DNA of 32,271 nt from Alphaproteobacteria bacterium (GCA_963577885.1 CAUZBE010000002.1:1-32271), one strand, 5' to 3'. Shown: positions 9,983 through 32,271, counted from the first letter of the stretch. Made by a program: numbers and translations. Notes: generated by a model from the letters alone, not told the origin.

Positions 9983-10648
9983 CTATTCGCGTTTAATCAT
10001 GCCGATGAATTCATAGCGAACGCCACGGACCGATTTGATCACGCTTTCCTTGGTGCCATATTTGTTCAGTTTTTGCCGCAGGCGCCCAATTAGGACGTCA
10101 ATATTCCGGCTGCCGGCTTGCATGACATAACCCAGCGCCTCGCGGTGCAGAGTATCCCGATCCACGGTTCTGCCCACATTATCAATCAAGGTTTGCAAGA
10201 GCCAGGATTTCCCCGCCGTTGATTGGGTGTCCTGGCCCTGCGGGTTGGTCAAACGTTGAAAGGCGCTTTCAAAGCGCCAGCCTGGAACCGTAGGGCGCAG
10301 CACACTGCGAATGCGGGCCAGTAATTTCCGTGATTTAAACGGCCTGGTTACGTAATCGTCGGCGCCAACTTCCAAACTAACGACCACATCGACGGATGCA
10401 CCCTTGCCGGTCAGCATGACGATACCCGCATCGGTCTTTTCGCGCAGAACCTTGGCCAAGATTAGGCCATCGCCATCAGGCAATTTCAGGTCGAGGATTA
10501 CCAGATCTACCGGCTATTATTCAATCACCGCGCGCATCTCGGCGCCATTGGCGGCATCAATGACGGCGAACTCCTCAGGTTCCAGATGATCGCGCAAAAC
10601 CAGCCGCAAATCCGGATCGTCATCGACAATTAGAATTAATTCAATCAT
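9983..10648 (-). pseudogene. OmpR/PhoB-family response regulator interrupted by two consecutive in-frame stop codons
   Basis: The minus-strand ORFs 10517..10735 and 9983..10483 are in the same frame. Read through, they give MIELILIVDDDPDLRLVLRDHLEPEEFAVIDAANGAEMRAVIE-TAA-TAG-PVDLVILDLKLPDGDG...IVMLTGKG...GADDYVTRPF..., followed by a winged-helix tail (RNIDVLIGRLRQKL...VRGVRYEF). The stops are at 10517-10519 and 10514-10516. The conserved receiver Lys of the KPF motif is Arg (RPF). Gene GC is about 50% by hand count, lower than the neighbours. Confidence 0.8.
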
Positions 10649-26548: not shown

Positions 26549-26735
26549 CTATGTTTTCTGCGGGTATTACGACCTATTTCGATTGCTACCCGCAAACCTA
26601 CCCCCAAACTAGCTTGGCATTGAAAGCGTAGTCGGGTCCCTTTGGGCAAATCCGGAACAGCCCCCAATGCCGCAACAATTAAAGCTTTCACAAAGAGCTC
26701 CCGTCATCGACAGAGGGCGACGGAGAGCAGCGTTC

Positions 26736-26882
26736 CGCGCACACGATGCCTGGGATAGCCCATCGAGGACCGAGGCCCACCGGCAGGCCATGATGGAGCT
26801 CATCGACACCGGACCCGCTCACATCGCGCACCCCGCAAGGTGGGCTCCGTTCGTGGTGGTTGGTGAAGGTGCGAGGCGGTAG
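26736..26882 (+). pseudogene. Remnant of a CHAT-domain protein C-terminus
   Basis: The end of ORF 26667..26882 reads ...RAHDAWDSPSRTEAHRQAMMELIDTGPAHIAHPARWAPFVVVGEGARR. (A)LRQAM..LI.....HP..WAPFVVVGEG is the characteristic CHAT-family tail. No CHAT catalytic core lies upstream, and the spacing suggests an internal deletion. Confidence 0.45.
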
Positions 26883-26985: not shown

Positions 26986-28398
26986 ATGGGAAATAAAACA
27001 TTAATTGTTTCTGATTACTCGCCAACCAACGCGCATAGATATCCTGCGGCTGTTAAGGCTGGAGGACTTGTATTTTTGTCGGGTGTTAGGCCTTCTAATA
27101 AAAGTGATAGCCGCAGGGGTTTTAATGATATCCCGGTTGGTGGCTATAATAAAAAACAAGGCTTTAGCATGGTTGATAGTTTGGAAAGTAAAGTTGCCTA
27201 TGATTCTTGGTTTTCTCATAAAAATATGGACGCTGTACTTGAAATGGCGGGTAGTGGCGGCGACCAAATTCTCCGGCAACATATTTGGCAAAAAGATAAA
27301 CGATTTTTTCCTATTTATGAGGACATTCGCCAGGTATTGCAAAAGGTACCATCTCCAAGTAGTGGCCTTGGGGTATCAGAAGTATTCGGAGATCCGTATT
27401 TTACGATAGGTATTGACGCAATCGCAGTTTGTCCTGATGAAAATCCAAATTTGCCGTCTCGGGAGGTTATTGCGGCAATGGATGACAAGGATTTACCAGC
27501 GGCATCATTCTATTCCCAGGCAGTTCGTTCCGGGCCGTTAGTTTTTACGGCAGGGCATATACCTATTAAAACCTCGGAGCGTGGCAAACCTCTCGTCAAT
27601 TCCTTCGAAGATTTACCCATGGAAGGCCGTTTTCTTGAAACAGGACGTAGTCACCCGGACAGTCGAGACGGCCCAATTGCGTCACAAAGTTGGCATGTCT
27701 ACAAAGAATTAGAAAGGACCTTGCGAAAGCAGGGGTTGGAATTATCTGATACAATTAATGCAACAGTATTTTTGGCTGATATAAGAGATTTTCCGACATT
27801 TCACCGAATTCATAATCACATTTTCCGCGAAAAAAATACAGCTCTTACTGTCTCGGGGTTCGATGAAGTAGGGCATCGTGGTTGTCTTATCGAAATTGAG
27901 TTGACTGCCTCAGCCTCCATGAAGAATTTCGATAAGAATACATTCGACTGGCCTATTAAAGCGCCCTTTGCGGCCCCCTCAGCGACAAGTGCAGGGGGGT
28001 TTATATTTTATTCGGGGGTATTAGGTCTCAATTCAAGTAGTGAAATAGTTCAAAGTTTTAATGATTTTTGTTTTACTCCCGCAGATCTAGGTAAAATACT
28101 TGAAAATAATGAGGGGCACCCTAGCCTAGTGTGCCAATGTTGGGCGGCATTCGATTTATTATCAGAAAACGCCGAAAAAGCTAATTCAAGTTTAGATGAC
28201 CTGGTAAAAATCACTGTTTATTTAAAGAAAGCTGGGCATTTTAAGGTCTTTGATGAGGTGGCGTCGGAGTTCTTAAGTGAGGAAAACTTACCAGCTTTAG
28301 AGTGTGTGCTCATACCAAATCCGGGTCCAGTTCACGATGCGGTGGTCCAAATTGAGGCAATAGGATTTAGAAATGAAAAAAGGGCCGAGCTGATTTGA
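26986..28398 (+). CDS. Protein composed of three tandem RidA/YjgF (endoribonuclease L-PSP)-like domains; low-GC cassette
   Basis: 470 aa. There are three repeats of the family pattern. (1) YPAAVKAGGLVFLSGVRP...ILRQHIWQKDKRFFPIYEDI...IGIDAIAV. (2) YSQAVRSGPLVFTAGHIP...TINATVFLADIRDFPTFHRIH...CLIEIELTA. (3) PSATSAGGFIFYSGVLG...LVKITVYLKKAGHFKVFDEV...AVVQIEAIGF. Each repeat carries a similar insertion (GFNDIP / SFEDLP / SFNDFC ... W). GC is roughly 30-45% on hand-counted lines, versus about 60% in the flanks. Confidence 0.75.
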   Translation: MGNKTLIVSDYSPTNAHRYPAAVKAGGLVFLSGVRPSNKSDSRRGFNDIPVGGYNKKQGFSMVDSLESKVAYDSWFSHKNMDAVLEMAGSGGDQILRQHIWQKDKRFFPIYEDIRQVLQKVPSPSSGLGVSEVFGDPYFTIGIDAIAVCPDENPNLPSREVIAAMDDKDLPAASFYSQAVRSGPLVFTAGHIPIKTSERGKPLVNSFEDLPMEGRFLETGRSHPDSRDGPIASQSWHVYKELERTLRKQGLELSDTINATVFLADIRDFPTFHRIHNHIFREKNTALTVSGFDEVGHRGCLIEIELTASASMKNFDKNTFDWPIKAPFAAPSATSAGGFIFYSGVLGLNSSSEIVQSFNDFCFTPADLGKILENNEGHPSLVCQCWAAFDLLSENAEKANSSLDDLVKITVYLKKAGHFKVFDEVASEFLSEENLPALECVLIPNPGPVHDAVVQIEAIGFRNEKRAELI

Positions 28399-28649: not shown

Positions 28650-31600
28650 CTATTTCAGTTCGTCAAGTAGTGCCTTCGCGTCTCTGAGGTCCGGTGTGTC
28701 AAGGCCCTCAGTAAACCATTCGTAAATTGTGCTCAAAACACCTCGCGCTTCGTCGTGTCGGCCGGTACCAGCCTGTATGCGAGCGAGGCTTACCGCGGCG
28801 CGCAACTCGAGCATTTTAGCCTGCTGCTGTCGGGCAATTTTGAGCGCGAGGTTAAAACATTCCTCACTGGCGTCGGTGTTTTCTTCGGGCTGGAGCATTA
28901 AAAGCCCACCCTTGATTCGAATTATCTCTGCCAAACACTTTTTTTCTCCAGTCGCCTCGACTAAACGTAAAGCCTCAGTGATCGACTCCAGGCCTTGTTC
29001 CGGCCTGCCAGCCCAACCTTGAACCTCAGCGAGCACGGCCAAGAATTCTGGTACGCGCAAACCCGCCCCGGTGCGTTGCCAGGCCGCCAGCCCCTTGCTG
29101 ATTTCGGCGACGCCATTTTCGAGGTCACCTTCTACGGCTGTCGCCCAGCCATGCACAGCATTGCCCAGACTGCCATAGTTCAGAACGCCATGTTCCTGAC
29201 TCAAAGCAATGCAAATCTCAGCCTGTTGGCGCGCCACCGTCGCATCACGGCAGAGTAGATAATAATAACTGGTAAAAAAATGTGCCAGAATCAATGTCAT
29301 TGGGTGGCCAAGATTTTCAGCGCTGGCTAAGGTCTCTTGGGCGCTATTGGCGGCTTGCTCAAGATGGCCGAGATACCATTGAGACTGCATCAAATGGGAA
29401 CTGGCACAGACACCCGGATCGTGGCCGCCGTAGAGGAGGACATGAGTTTTATGCTCGGCAGAATCATAGTCGTCGTGCCCACGTTGGGAATGCTGTCGGC
29501 ACAGCTCGAAATCGGCCGTGGAGAGAAAGCTTGTCCAAGCTGAATGGCGCGCCTGTAATAACAGTATGGGCTTATCCTGTCGCTCGGCGACTTCCAGCAG
29601 TTCATGCGAAAGACCATGCGCAGGCACTAAACGGGCGCCCTGTTGCGCGTTGATCCAAAGCCCCCAGGTGAAGGCAAACTGTTGCTCCGGCGTTCCCACC
29701 CGTTGACACAGATCGCGAGCCGCAGTGTAGGCGTCAGTGACCTCTGGTGCTGCATAACCCTTGTTCGCAAGAAGCACCGTGCCTCGCATGAGTCTAAGGT
29801 CCAGCTCGCTTCGATCTCGCTCCAAGCCTTCCGGCAATGCTGTGACCAGTTCGAGGCCCCTCTCTAAATGCGCAATAGCCTCGTGGTTGGCAGATCGTTC
29901 GACGGCACGATTTCCCGCGCGTGCCCAATAGAAGACAGCCCGGTCGGTCTGCCCCGCTTCCGAGAAATGATGGGCCAGAACCTCGGGCATGGTCTGAAAA
30001 ATTTCTGGAAAATCTCGTTCGCTGGTCTCTGCTATGTCACGATGTAGCTCCCGGCGACGGCTGATCAAAAGCGACTCATACGCCGCATCCTGAACCAATG
30101 TTTGCTTGAAAGCATAGATCCTATCCGTCGCCGCACCTTGGCGAATTACAAGCCCGGATCGAACCAATTTCTCCAAATCGCTTTCAAGTTGGAGTTCTTG
30201 CTGTTCGGTAATTGCGGCCAGCAAATCATGGCTAAACTCACGACCTATGACGGCGCCAATCTGCGCGAGACGCTTAGCGCTACCGAGCCGGTCGATGCTT
30301 GCCATGAGAGAAGCCTGAAGCGTGGTCGGAATGTTGCCCATGTTTGCGATGTCACCACTGTCCAGGACCGTTTGGGTTAGCGCTTCGACGAATAGGGGCA
30401 CACCGTCTGCACGCGCTACAATTCGTTCAATGATATAGCTTGTCAGATCCTCACCGCCGGAGGCGTGTACAATTTCGGCGCCTTGTTCGCGGCTGAGCCG
30501 GTTCAATGCGACCGATGTAAGGTGTGGTTGGTCGGGCCAGATATCGGATCGCTCCGGACGATGGGTAATTAGCACTAGGACGCGAGCGCCTTGCACCTGC
30601 GCCATAATCTCCGCCACCAGGGATTTGGTCGTCGGATCGATCCAATGGGCGTCTTCCACCACGAAGAGTACCGGCCTCAGTTGGCTCAACGCGGTCACTT
30701 GATCAACCAATGCCTCTATCGTGCGGGCCCGGAGCAACTGTGGACTTAGCTCTAGCGAGCCATACCTATCCTCTGCCGGTAAAGAGAGCAGGGTCGCGAA
30801 GATAGGCGCAATGCTTGCGATGTTCGCATTGGAAAGGCGCAACAATGATTCGAGTTTGTCAAGTTTGGTGTCAATATCGTCTTCGGTGGAGAATCTGGCT
30901 GCCCGCGTCAGCCTCTGGATGATGGGATAGAGCGCGGTGTTCGCGTGAAGGGGCGAGCACTGGTAGCGCAAACCAAAATGGGTTTCATTTAGGATTTCAT
31001 CGCGCAATGTGCGCACAAGGCGTGACTTGCCGATGCCGGGTCCGCCGGCCAGCAGTACTACTTGGCCCTCTCCGCCTTTTGCCTGCGACCATCGCTCCGT
31101 TAGTAGACCTAATTCATGCTTCCGACCAACGAAACGGGTGAGTGTTTCTTCATGTCGCGCGTCGAACCGGCTTTCCGCCTGGCCTTCGCCGGTGACCGCC
31201 CAACACGGCACAGATTGTTCAAATCCTTTGAGATTATGTGGGCCGAGATCCTCAAGTACAAATACCATGCCGATCAGTTGCCTAGTCAACGCATTAATCA
31301 CCACCTGTCCGGGCAACGCCATACCTTGAAGTCGCGCCGCCAGGTTTGGGGTCTCTCCGCTTACGGCTTCCAAATCCGAGGCCGTATCGCCGACCAAGTC
31401 ACCAACGACCACTTGACCTGTCGCTATGCCAACTCGTGCGCGTAGAGTTTCGCCGACAATTTTGATCTTTTCGACGGCGGTGTGGGCGTCGAGCGCAGCA
31501 CGGACCGCTCGGGCGGCTTGGTCCTCATGCGCATGAGGCCAGCCGAAATATGCGAGCACGCCATCGCCCAGAAACTTCGCAATATGTCCCTCATAGCGGA

Positions 31601-31973
31601 TCACGGCGCTTGCTACGGCATCTTGGTATCGCGCCATAATATCGCGTAGGTCTTCTGGGTCGAGGCGGCGGGATAATTCAGTCGAACCCACCAAGTCACA
31701 AAACATGACTGTCAGCTGACGACGTTCGGCAGTAGTTGAACGATGGTCCTGATCTTTGGCAACCTGAATGCTTGCCGGGGCGACTTCTTTGCTGCCTAGC
31801 TGTGCAATGGCACGAAGCAGTCGTTTGCTGTCTCCTAAGTTGACGCCAAGTTGTTGTAGATCGTCTTTGTCCAAGTCCGCGACGACATCAACACCGATGC
31901 CGTTCTCTACAAATACGTCGCCATATTTGCCTAGCCCGAGTTCTTCCAACCACTGGCGAATATCATCTTCCAT
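28650..31973 (-). CDS. Multidomain signalling protein: N-terminal SAM domain, class III adenylate/guanylate cyclase domain, STAND/AAA_16-type NTPase, and C-terminal TPR-like repeats
   Basis: 1107 aa. GGGGAGAG lies about 9 nt upstream of the ATG. SAM-like aa 3-60 (IRQWLEELGLGKYGDVFVENGIGVDVVADLDKDDLQQLGVNLGDSKRLLRAI). Cyclase aa ~84-262 (RRQLTVMFCDLVGST, IAKFLGDGVLAYFG, GIATGQVVVGDLVG, ETPNLAARLQ). Walker A LLAGGPGIGKSRLV (aa ~307-320) and Walker B LFVVEDAHWID (aa ~436-446). The last ~400 aa are helical repeat (TPR-like) sequence. GC is about 45-53% on hand-counted lines. Confidence 0.9.
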   Translation of the reverse strand: MEDDIRQWLEELGLGKYGDVFVENGIGVDVVADLDKDDLQQLGVNLGDSKRLLRAIAQLGSKEVAPASIQVAKDQDHRSTTAERRQLTVMFCDLVGSTELSRRLDPEDLRDIMARYQDAVASAVIRYEGHIAKFLGDGVLAYFGWPHAHEDQAARAVRAALDAHTAVEKIKIVGETLRARVGIATGQVVVGDLVGDTASDLEAVSGETPNLAARLQGMALPGQVVINALTRQLIGMVFVLEDLGPHNLKGFEQSVPCWAVTGEGQAESRFDARHEETLTRFVGRKHELGLLTERWSQAKGGEGQVVLLAGGPGIGKSRLVRTLRDEILNETHFGLRYQCSPLHANTALYPIIQRLTRAARFSTEDDIDTKLDKLESLLRLSNANIASIAPIFATLLSLPAEDRYGSLELSPQLLRARTIEALVDQVTALSQLRPVLFVVEDAHWIDPTTKSLVAEIMAQVQGARVLVLITHRPERSDIWPDQPHLTSVALNRLSREQGAEIVHASGGEDLTSYIIERIVARADGVPLFVEALTQTVLDSGDIANMGNIPTTLQASLMASIDRLGSAKRLAQIGAVIGREFSHDLLAAITEQQELQLESDLEKLVRSGLVIRQGAATDRIYAFKQTLVQDAAYESLLISRRRELHRDIAETSERDFPEIFQTMPEVLAHHFSEAGQTDRAVFYWARAGNRAVERSANHEAIAHLERGLELVTALPEGLERDRSELDLRLMRGTVLLANKGYAAPEVTDAYTAARDLCQRVGTPEQQFAFTWGLWINAQQGARLVPAHGLSHELLEVAERQDKPILLLQARHSAWTSFLSTADFELCRQHSQRGHDDYDSAEHKTHVLLYGGHDPGVCASSHLMQSQWYLGHLEQAANSAQETLASAENLGHPMTLILAHFFTSYYYLLCRDATVARQQAEICIALSQEHGVLNYGSLGNAVHGWATAVEGDLENGVAEISKGLAAWQRTGAGLRVPEFLAVLAEVQGWAGRPEQGLESITEALRLVEATGEKKCLAEIIRIKGGLLMLQPEENTDASEECFNLALKIARQQQAKMLELRAAVSLARIQAGTGRHDEARGVLSTIYEWFTEGLDTPDLRDAKALLDELK

Positions 31974-32271
31974 CGACGCTTGCTCTCCCCAACGGTCAGC
32001 TTAGCAGGCTGAGTGAGATCGGGGAATAACTTCGAATTTCAGAACCATTTTACGCACCTGTTAATGGCAGCTATGGTCCCAAGAAGTCTGTAAACGTTTC
32101 CTAAAATATCGCTCACTCCTGGAGGCCCTATTAGCCAAACGAGTACTGGTTTGAATATCCCCGTAACTCATAAATCTCAGGCCACAAGTTGGCGCCACTC
32201 GGCCAGAGCGGTCGCGCGGCTCTGCTTGAATACGTCGCGGCGGATTAGCGGAGGTGGTTGCTGAGCTCGGG

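Follow-up and report, generated by a model that had tools for sequence, protein, structure and literature searches.

Soluble class III nucleotide cyclases that carry a STAND-type ATPase module are found in bacteria as well as in mammals. The Mycobacterium tuberculosis proteins Rv0386, Rv1358 and Rv2488c combine an N-terminal class III cyclase with a P-loop STAND ATPase and tetratricopeptide repeats (TPR), and end in a LuxR-type helix-turn-helix (HTH). For these mycobacterial cyclase-ATPase proteins cyclase activity has been shown and the role of the ATPase is unstudied; the group is reported to have an atypical Gln-Asn substrate pair that confers guanylyl in addition to adenylyl cyclase activity, and Rv0386 is assigned to class IIIc (bioRxiv 10.1101/2024.03.06.583649). 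A soluble class III cyclase ahead of a predicted STAND P-loop module is also found in mammals, in the full-length soluble adenylyl cyclase (sACfl, ADCY10). How this module regulates the cyclase is an open question, and biochemical work from 2025 identified no regulator that acts on the full-length form specifically (PMC12802110). Here, we analyze a gene of similar layout at 28650..31973 on the minus strand of a stretch of 32,271 nucleotides (nt) from an Alphaproteobacteria bacterium (GCA_963577885.1 CAUZBE010000002.1:1-32271), hereafter called the window. Its product of 1107 amino acids (aa) consists of a SAM domain, a class III cyclase, a STAND NTPase and a TPR-like solenoid.

Proteins with SAM, cyclase and AAA ATPase modules were already noted in 2015 in root nodule bacteria (PMC4653623). 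Mechanistic knowledge comes from the STAND proteins PH0952 and MalT, whose resting ADP-bound form is kept closed via contacts of the nucleotide-binding domain (NBD) with the winged-helix domain, the arm and the sensor; for MalT, inducer- and ATP-dependent head-to-tail multimerization is experimentally established (PMC6468293). One STAND clade, SWACOS, is reportedly defined in part by fusions to cyclases; this is not used as evidence here.

The window gene is real and intact and encodes a large cytoplasmic protein, presumably a sensor. By sequence, the protein is a somewhat divergent branch of a known, abundant and experimentally uncharacterized family. The reading that we favor, as moderately likely, is a solo ligand-gated cyclase of the MalT/PH0952 type which feeds a general pool of cyclic nucleotide monophosphates (cNMP) that is read in trans.

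Architecture of the protein

The open reading frame (ORF) is uninterrupted, with an ATG start, 1107 codons and a stop. The AlphaFold2 (AF2) model, for which 108 homologues were supplied, is confident (mean predicted local distance difference test score, pLDDT, 89.7; predicted TM-score, pTM, 0.74). It places the module borders at residues 1-60 (SAM), 83-263 (cyclase), 278-633 (nucleotide-binding oligomerization domain, NOD) and 637-1107 (solenoid). Residues 62-81 are predicted to form a disordered tether, and residues 267-277 a short, flexible linker. The gene and its parts are as follows, with the sources of each assignment in brackets.

28650..31973, minus strand: SAM / class III cyclase / STAND NTPase / TPR-like solenoid gene (ORF list, Pfam, AF2)
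31794..31973, minus strand: SAM domain, aa 1-60, five-helix bundle (Pfam, PDB matches, AF2)
31185..31727, minus strand: class III nucleotidyl cyclase catalytic domain, aa 83-263, with D93, K133, D137, A203, N210 and R214 (Pfam, Foldseek)
30075..31142, minus strand: STAND NOD, aa 278-633, comprising the P-loop NBD (285-490), a helical part (495-540) and the winged helix (552-633) (AAA_16, AF2, Foldseek)
31023..31046, minus strand: Walker A motif GGPGIGKS, aa 310-317 (motif and family alignment)
30645..30662, minus strand: Walker B motif VVEDAH, aa 438-443, within the conserved VVEDAHWID block (motif and family alignment)
28653..30065, minus strand: TPR-like alpha-solenoid, aa 637-1107, about 26 helices, presumed sensor (AF2)

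For the whole protein, the top Foldseek match in the PDB is the STAND-TPR protein PH0952 (6mfv; E 2.4e-12, 839 columns), followed by class III cyclase domains, Apaf-1 and Avs3. The Pfam scan of the 1107-aa protein, for which calls above the gathering score are reported here unless marked as sub-threshold, detects no DNA-binding or HTH domain, and the solenoid reaches the C-terminus. The original prediction, made from the DNA alone, had proposed one 1107-aa ORF with four modules, an NLR/STAND-like order of N-terminal enzyme, central NOD and C-terminal repeat sensor, and no DNA-binding output. Pfam, the AF2 model and Foldseek agree with it on these points.

The closest described proteins share the same four modules and length. 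Sinorhizobium meliloti WP_192936188.1 (encoded on pSymA, 44% identical end to end), Bradyrhizobium sp. 195 WP_247973510.1 and Sulfitobacter mediterraneus P0050 are 44-51% identical to the window protein over the full length, SAM included, and are encoded by solo genes, often on accessory replicons. Compared with these relatives, the window protein is a divergent branch with four substituted NOD residues. The M. tuberculosis proteins resemble it in the order of cyclase, ATPase and TPR; however, they have no SAM domain, and the window protein lacks their HTH and carries Lys and Ala at the substrate-pair positions.

The same body is also found in the NCBIfam family TIGR03903, a fusion of kinase and cyclase named after thiazole/oxazole-modified microcins (TOMM). 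Residues 57-1064 align to profile positions 260-1265 of 1267 (E 3.9e-158), but the score of 528.5 bits lies below the family cut-off of 705.75 and the kinase positions 1-259 are unmatched. The kinase of about 260 residues is replaced in the window protein by the 60-residue SAM domain. No TOMM genes or other genes for ribosomally synthesized and post-translationally modified peptides lie near the window gene, and nothing was found in the literature on 'TIGR03903'.

PH0952 of Pyrococcus horikoshii, the one STAND protein with a TPR sensor whose structure has been solved, is the best structural match for NOD plus solenoid. In PH0952 and in Escherichia coli MalT, however, the effector is a DNA-binding domain, and a profile search detects no sequence similarity to either protein; the LuxR-type HTH of MalT/LAL regulators is absent from the window protein by Pfam and AF2. 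The catalytic domain of soluble adenylyl cyclase (sAC) is a detectable relative of the window cyclase (4clf, E 2e-8). In contrast to the window protein, sAC has no SAM domain, and its two tandem catalytic domains form a pseudo-heterodimer, so that oligomerization is not needed for an active site.

Cyclase domain

The catalytic domain matches Guanylate_cyc (PF00211) over residues 85-260 (E 3.8e-17, 62.9 bits against a cut-off of 21.9). Its nearest solved relative in sequence is Pseudomonas aeruginosa CyaB (3r5g, E 1.4e-22), and Foldseek TM-scores normalized to the target reach 0.8-0.9 for CyaC, Cya2, CyaB and RhGC. The closest solved catalytic domains are those of the bacterial cyclases CyaB (3r5g), Cya2 (2w01) and CyaC (1wc0/1wc1), which we take to belong to class IIIb.

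Motif conservation was scored on an alignment of 77 diverse relatives from many phyla. The metal-binding aspartates D93 (FCDLVGS) and D137 (FLGDG) are each present in 76 of the 77 sequences, and the transition-state residues N210 and R214 (PNLAARL) in 76 and 77, respectively. These four residues, which had been read from the sequence, are in place and near-invariant. The substrate lysine K133 is present as well, at a position held in the family by Lys (48), Arg (13) or Gln (13). The second substrate-specifying position is occupied by A203; the family shows Ala (40), Ser (15) and Thr (11) there, and the HMMER alignment to CyaB needs a one-residue gap at this position.

In class III cyclases, Lys together with Asp or Thr specifies ATP and Glu together with Cys specifies GTP, and a Thr at the second position is typical of class IIIb. 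Judged by its residues and nearest relatives, the domain is most likely an adenylate cyclase with ATP as the likeliest substrate, and the product, once the ATP-driven switch is triggered, would probably be cyclic AMP. The catalytic sites of class III cyclases form at the dimer interface and the enzymes are active only as dimers.

STAND module and its substitutions

AAA_16 covers residues 280-467 (E 5.1e-19, 69.8 bits against a cut-off of 32.6). With Foldseek, the NOD matches PH0952 (6mfv, 2.4e-12), Apaf-1 (3sfz, 2.8e-9) and Avs3 (8dgc, 1.4e-8). AF2 and Foldseek reveal the STAND layout, in which NBD, helical part and winged helix are followed by a repeat sensor. A family profile restricted to the NOD yielded only generic P-loop matches in the PDB (ABC, Clp) and no alignment of the winged-helix His with Apaf-1 or MalT; the STAND assignment therefore relies on Foldseek.

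Both nucleotide-binding motifs named in the original prediction, GGPGIGKS and VVEDAH, lie within near-invariant family motifs. In Walker A, G310, G313, G315, K316 and S317 are kept in 76-77 of the 77 relatives, as are E440, D441, H443, W444 and D446 in the Walker B block. R472, located just after a β-strand and presumably the sensor-1 arginine, is invariant in the family and intact here. Position 311 departs from this pattern, with Gly where 72 of 77 relatives have Glu, and P312 stands in place of the usual Ala.

In total, four near-invariant NOD residues are replaced: Glu by G311, Glu by A531, Arg by S559 and His by Q624 (codon 30102..30104). Each replaced residue is kept by 100 or more of 108 close relatives (106 for the His, which belongs to the winged-helix motif FKHALVQDAAY), and the departures are confined to the window lineage. 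All four are fixed in 13 of 13 near-identical population copies examined.

These changes favor a reading in which the switch is degenerate or rewired, so that the protein is a constitutive or NTP-independent cyclase, or a scaffold whose cyclase is regulated otherwise. A His that is conserved in the winged helix of Apaf-1 and NLR proteins contacts ADP, and its mutation auto-activates plant NLRs. However, the Walker A Lys and Ser, the acidic pair of Walker B and R472 are intact, the whole 1107-aa ORF is maintained across samples, and the equivalence of the family's His at position 624 to the ADP-contacting His is tentative. We consider a rewired switch unlikely, though of the alternatives discussed in this work it is the one to be taken most seriously.

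Presumed sensor and N-terminal module

The solenoid extends in unbroken helical hairpins from helix 637-654 to helix 1094-1106, with pLDDT values mostly above 90 in this block. TPR-like repeats had been proposed over some 400 aa; the repeats are borne out, but they occupy about 470 aa. The only Pfam trace is a TPR_12 match at residues 1027-1085 below the cut-off. Mean column conservation, expressed as the frequency of the commonest residue, is lowest in the solenoid (0.35-0.50, against 0.53-0.73 in the cyclase and 0.46-0.70 in the NOD).

At the other end, SAM_1 (PF00536) matches residues 3-59 (E 1.3e-13, 51.5 bits against a cut-off of 23) and SAM_2 (PF07647) is also detected (E 1.2e-9, 38.6 bits against 20.5). 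Sequence matches in the PDB include Caskin and Eph SAM domains, down to 5.5e-8. In the AF2 model, the five helices span residues 2-11, 15-23, 28-31, 36-41 and 46-59 with pLDDT values of 82-95. Head-to-tail polymerization is not universal among SAM domains.

The N-terminal module appears to be swappable between SAM, zinc ribbon and kinase. In the close relatives L012, L016, L033 and L071, a double zinc ribbon (CxxC...CxxC repeated) replaces the SAM domain and the remainder is the same, and TIGR03903 carries a protein kinase at the SAM position ahead of the same cyclase-NOD-TPR body.

Family size and distribution

An exhaustive HMMER search of 1.84 billion representatives of clusters at 50% identity retrieved 28,941 representatives at E<=1e-30. 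The best 150 of these all score about 800 bits or more, and 137 of the 150 include the SAM domain, with matches that begin at query residue 16 or earlier. In a word-indexed search, the best 120 of at least 8000 candidates were mostly full-length, 45-58% identical and endowed with the same Pfam set; many of them are already named 'class 3 adenylate cyclase/predicted ATPase'. Outside the 90% cluster of the window protein itself, the best match in this search reaches 58% identity.

A scan of one genome per species returned at least 554 relatives, with two copies in some genomes. They span Alpha-, Beta- and Gammaproteobacteria, Nitrospirota, Acidobacteriota, Planctomycetota, Binatota and Trueperaceae. 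Furthermore, full-length copies are present in 226 plasmid records, the majority of them Sinorhizobium or Rhizobium megaplasmids that hold 2-4 apiece. Several copies per genome or megaplasmid are typical of expanded signaling families, and we count this in favor of the solo-gene view.

The architecture is not novel. It is very common, already annotated and in print since 2015 (PMC4653623), and the discovery value of the window gene is accordingly small. An existing functional characterization had also been named as a ground for giving up the original prediction; the literature contained no functional study of the SAM-cyclase-STAND-TPR architecture that we could find, and cyclases are not mentioned in the text-searchable supplements of a 2026 STAND survey. 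The interest of the family lies elsewhere: it comprises tens of thousands of clusters without a tested function or ligand, includes relatives in M. tuberculosis and shares its layout with mammalian sACfl.

Genomic neighborhoods and the question of defense

Neighborhoods were examined around homologues at 79 loci, in flanking sequence of up to 10 kb. Clustering of the ORFs within six genes of the homologue in these 79 loci gave no conserved partner. The largest non-self neighbor cluster covers 11 loci at scattered positions, and the sole recurrent neighbor is another copy of the same family. Pfam and PADLOC scans covered the nearest two genes per side. Pfam assigns the 139 immediately adjacent genes to 124 families, each present in at most four genes (MFS_1 and SCO4226-like lead), and the 131 next-nearest genes to 117 families, with two single transposase-family matches. 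Overall, these neighbors have miscellaneous metabolic and transport functions.

Secretion-system genes are not linked among the scanned neighbors. This bears on the idea of a host factor that mimics eukaryotic proteins, in which the SAM domain docks to SAM proteins of the host and the cyclase increases cAMP in the host cell, as has been proposed for root nodule bacteria. SAM_1 occurs mainly in eukaryotes, SAM-cyclase-AAA proteins are over-represented in root nodule bacteria, and many copies reside on symbiosis megaplasmids. Against these points, members of the family are widespread among free-living lineages of sea, soil and groundwater, including the five non-proteobacterial groups listed above, and a zinc ribbon or a kinase can take the place of the SAM domain. 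In addition, a cytoplasmic STAND protein of 1107 aa would be an unlikely secretion substrate. A role inside host cells is highly improbable.

Only 2 of the 139 genes directly beside a homologue code for a cNMP-binding domain, in both cases as a bare protein of about 150 aa without an effector domain. In the window itself, the original prediction had seen no cNMP-binding effector gene, and a scan of the 19 other large ORFs of the window likewise found no cNMP-binding domain.

These results bear on an antiviral reading, according to which the protein is an Avs-type, NLR-like sensor: the TPR region recognizes a phage protein, the STAND module oligomerizes, and, as in Pycsar, an effector is switched on by a cNMP alarm. 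Avs and NLR-like proteins indeed share the tripartite STAND logic, with Foldseek similarity to Avs3 (1.4e-8) and Apaf-1, and conservation within the family is lowest in the sensor region. PADLOC matches the cyclase domain to PycC models (about 1e-15). The DNA is foreign in composition, flanked by an insertion sequence (IS) and variable between strains, and what looks like the stub of a CHAT-protease gene lies 1.8 kb away.

Other observations speak against such a sensor. PycC matches are the only ones that PADLOC returns for the protein, they are confined to the domain level, and the nearest solved domains are signaling cyclases acting on purine nucleotides; the cNMP-binding effector that adjoins the cyclase in Pycsar is missing. 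PADLOC finds no Avs or other STAND match on the protein, which also lacks the defense context and the nuclease, protease, TIR or sirtuin effector of Avs proteins. Among the neighbors, PADLOC shows no defense enrichment, only generic methyltransferase and cyclase matches, one RtcR-like regulator and a few other single ones. Two TIR-effector matches are most likely the two cNMP-binding proteins just mentioned. Furthermore, 50,697 phage records contain isolated cyclase domains only, none matching the NOD or the solenoid and no full-length relative, and rhizobial megaplasmids hold 2-4 paralogues. With no linked effector and no conserved neighbor, an antiviral sensor is improbable, and the defense role originally suggested for the gene is not supported.

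The family behaves as a set of expanded solo signaling genes, without linked effector or defense-island association at the depth tested. Of the pattern that the original prediction had named as speaking against itself, namely a housekeeping gene without mobile or defense association, the lack of a defense association was found; but there is no housekeeping synteny, and the window copy is associated with a mobile element. For annotation, the lesson is that a STAND module, TPR and an enzymatic N-terminus on foreign DNA are insufficient to call a defense gene.

At two of the 79 loci, the only ones with a cNMP-binding neighbor, which belong to two related soil Proteobacteria metagenome-assembled genomes (L059:5321-6358 and L078:3996-4505), a cNMP-binding protein is encoded directly downstream in convergent orientation.

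Proposed mechanism

A cyclase needs a dimer and an activated STAND NOD multimerizes; the fusion of the two thus suggests a simple activation mechanism. The activation sequence that we infer would run as follows. At rest, the NOD would hold ADP. Binding of a cytoplasmic ligand, either a small molecule or a protein, to the TPR solenoid would let the NOD open, swap ADP for ATP and multimerize head to tail. Multimerization would join the N-terminal cyclase domains into dimers and thereby start cNMP synthesis, and the SAM domain on its disordered tether of about 20 residues would add self-association or partner docking. The cNMP would enter the general pool, to which CRP/Clr-type receptors encoded elsewhere would respond, with no linked effector. 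A precedent for such pooling is S. meliloti, in which many cyclases feed the cAMP/cGMP regulator Clr (PMC5498481, PMC13001267).

Several points weigh against the ligand-gated solo cyclase. No nucleotide tested affected mammalian sACfl differently from the truncated isoform (PMC12802110), and on this result STAND control of a cyclase is not yet demonstrated anywhere. Biochemical data for SAM-bearing members were not found in the searchable literature. In the window protein itself, A203 is neither the canonical Asp nor Thr, which leaves the substrate uncertain, and the four NOD departures imply that the switch may be atypical or differently tuned. Lastly, the source genome is incomplete, and a CRP-type receptor in it is hypothetical.

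A more far-reaching proposal would make the whole family NLR-like cytosolic receptors with diffusible cNMP as the sole output and unlinked receptors, in which STAND oligomers assemble the cyclase dimers and the trigger is a danger, phage or host signal. We see only a slim chance for it. If true, it would establish a coupling of STAND to a second messenger that is not shown in any organism, and would provide a tractable model for the STAND module of mammalian sACfl. The ligand-gated solo mechanism, if shown in a soluble bacterial protein, would also clarify the role of the ATPase in Rv0386-type proteins and the way in which the C-terminus of sAC regulates the enzyme.

Accessory DNA and strain variants

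The cyclase gene stands apart in composition. Its GC content at third codon positions (GC3) is 0.567, against 0.62-0.75 in the 18 other window genes, which represent an ordinary alphaproteobacterial chromosome (class A penicillin-binding protein, glyQS, ppdK, ftsY, dapF, ahcY and a polysaccharide cluster). An IS remnant is located upstream:

32177..32242, minus strand: IS6-family transposase stub, the last 21 codons plus stop (RRDVFKQSRATALAEWRQLVA*) (pairwise comparison, tblastn)

The stub lies on the same strand as the cyclase gene and ends 204 nt before its ATG. A longer version exists in the strain variant L088, where 52 codons, interrupted by an internal stop, are 52% identical to residues 182-233 of the 234-residue Ruegeria conchae WP_170608766.1 (E 6e-18). 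The stub was recovered solely by tblastn and pairwise comparison; Pfam gave no transposase match on small ORFs, neither on those of the gap at 26.0-27.0 kb nor on those preceding the gene in the variants. An ORF upstream of the gene in L088 was also considered as the tail of a serine recombinase; no search result supported this, and it was dropped.

The gene is maintained and not decaying, as at least 13 full-length copies, 99-100% identical, occur in several metagenomes. A further 1107-aa protein of the same cluster, P0267, is encoded on at least 10 contigs. Downstream of the gene, the order is the same in all copies examined, as far as each contig extends. The upstream flank, however, takes at least three forms in the population (L085:1-8442, L086:1-2620, L087:1-5875, L088:1-853): an operon for a LIV-type ABC transporter, with an IS3 orfA farther upstream; a set of SDR, RidA, MGMT and outer-membrane protein genes; and the L088 form with its longer IS6 stub. 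Junctions are located about 628 nt and 266 nt ahead of the ATG, the latter in L088, which is identical to the window at every base of the 266 nt and then differs save for isolated matches. The contig breaks off 376 nt upstream of the cyclase gene, probably because the upstream flank varies between strains.

Composition and the IS remnant thus agree with what had been proposed, and the data support horizontal acquisition of the window copy, as an accessory gene, beside an IS6 element. Of the suggested accessory or defense-type cargo, the accessory part stands on GC3, the IS6 stub and the variable flank, and the defense part falls. Island borders, for an islet at about 26.0-32.3 kb of the window, were sought without success: there are no tRNA genes, and repeats are at chance level only. 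The Clr/CRP-type box HGTYHCNNNNGRWACW, which controls S. meliloti cyaF2, has 0 matches in the window against 0.3 expected by chance, and a scan for promoters and terminators around the gene returned intragenic consensus matches only, which are uninformative.

The convergent neighbor at 26986..28398 (plus strand) encodes a RidA-like protein of 470 aa with at least two RidA/YjgF (Ribonuc_L-PSP) domains. Its GC content of 0.427 and GC3 of 0.350 make it more foreign than the cyclase gene. It adjoins the cyclase gene in every strain variant and in none of the 79 homologous loci from other genomes.

On the far side of this low-GC unit of two genes, in a 940-bp gap between an asparagine-synthase-like gene and the RidA-like gene, lies a 71-codon ORF (26667..26882, plus strand) ending in ...HPARWAPFVVVGEGARR. 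It has a weak CHAT match below the gathering score (E 0.003, profile positions 229-289 of 289) and resembles the 3′ remnant of a CHAT gene that has been lost.

Elsewhere in the window, the response-regulator-like ORF at 9983..10483 (minus strand) matches only the C-terminal half of a receiver domain (profile positions 52-111 of 111) together with Trans_reg_C. It is located in a GC dip (0.479 at 10-11 kb) and may be a truncated gene or have a mis-called start.

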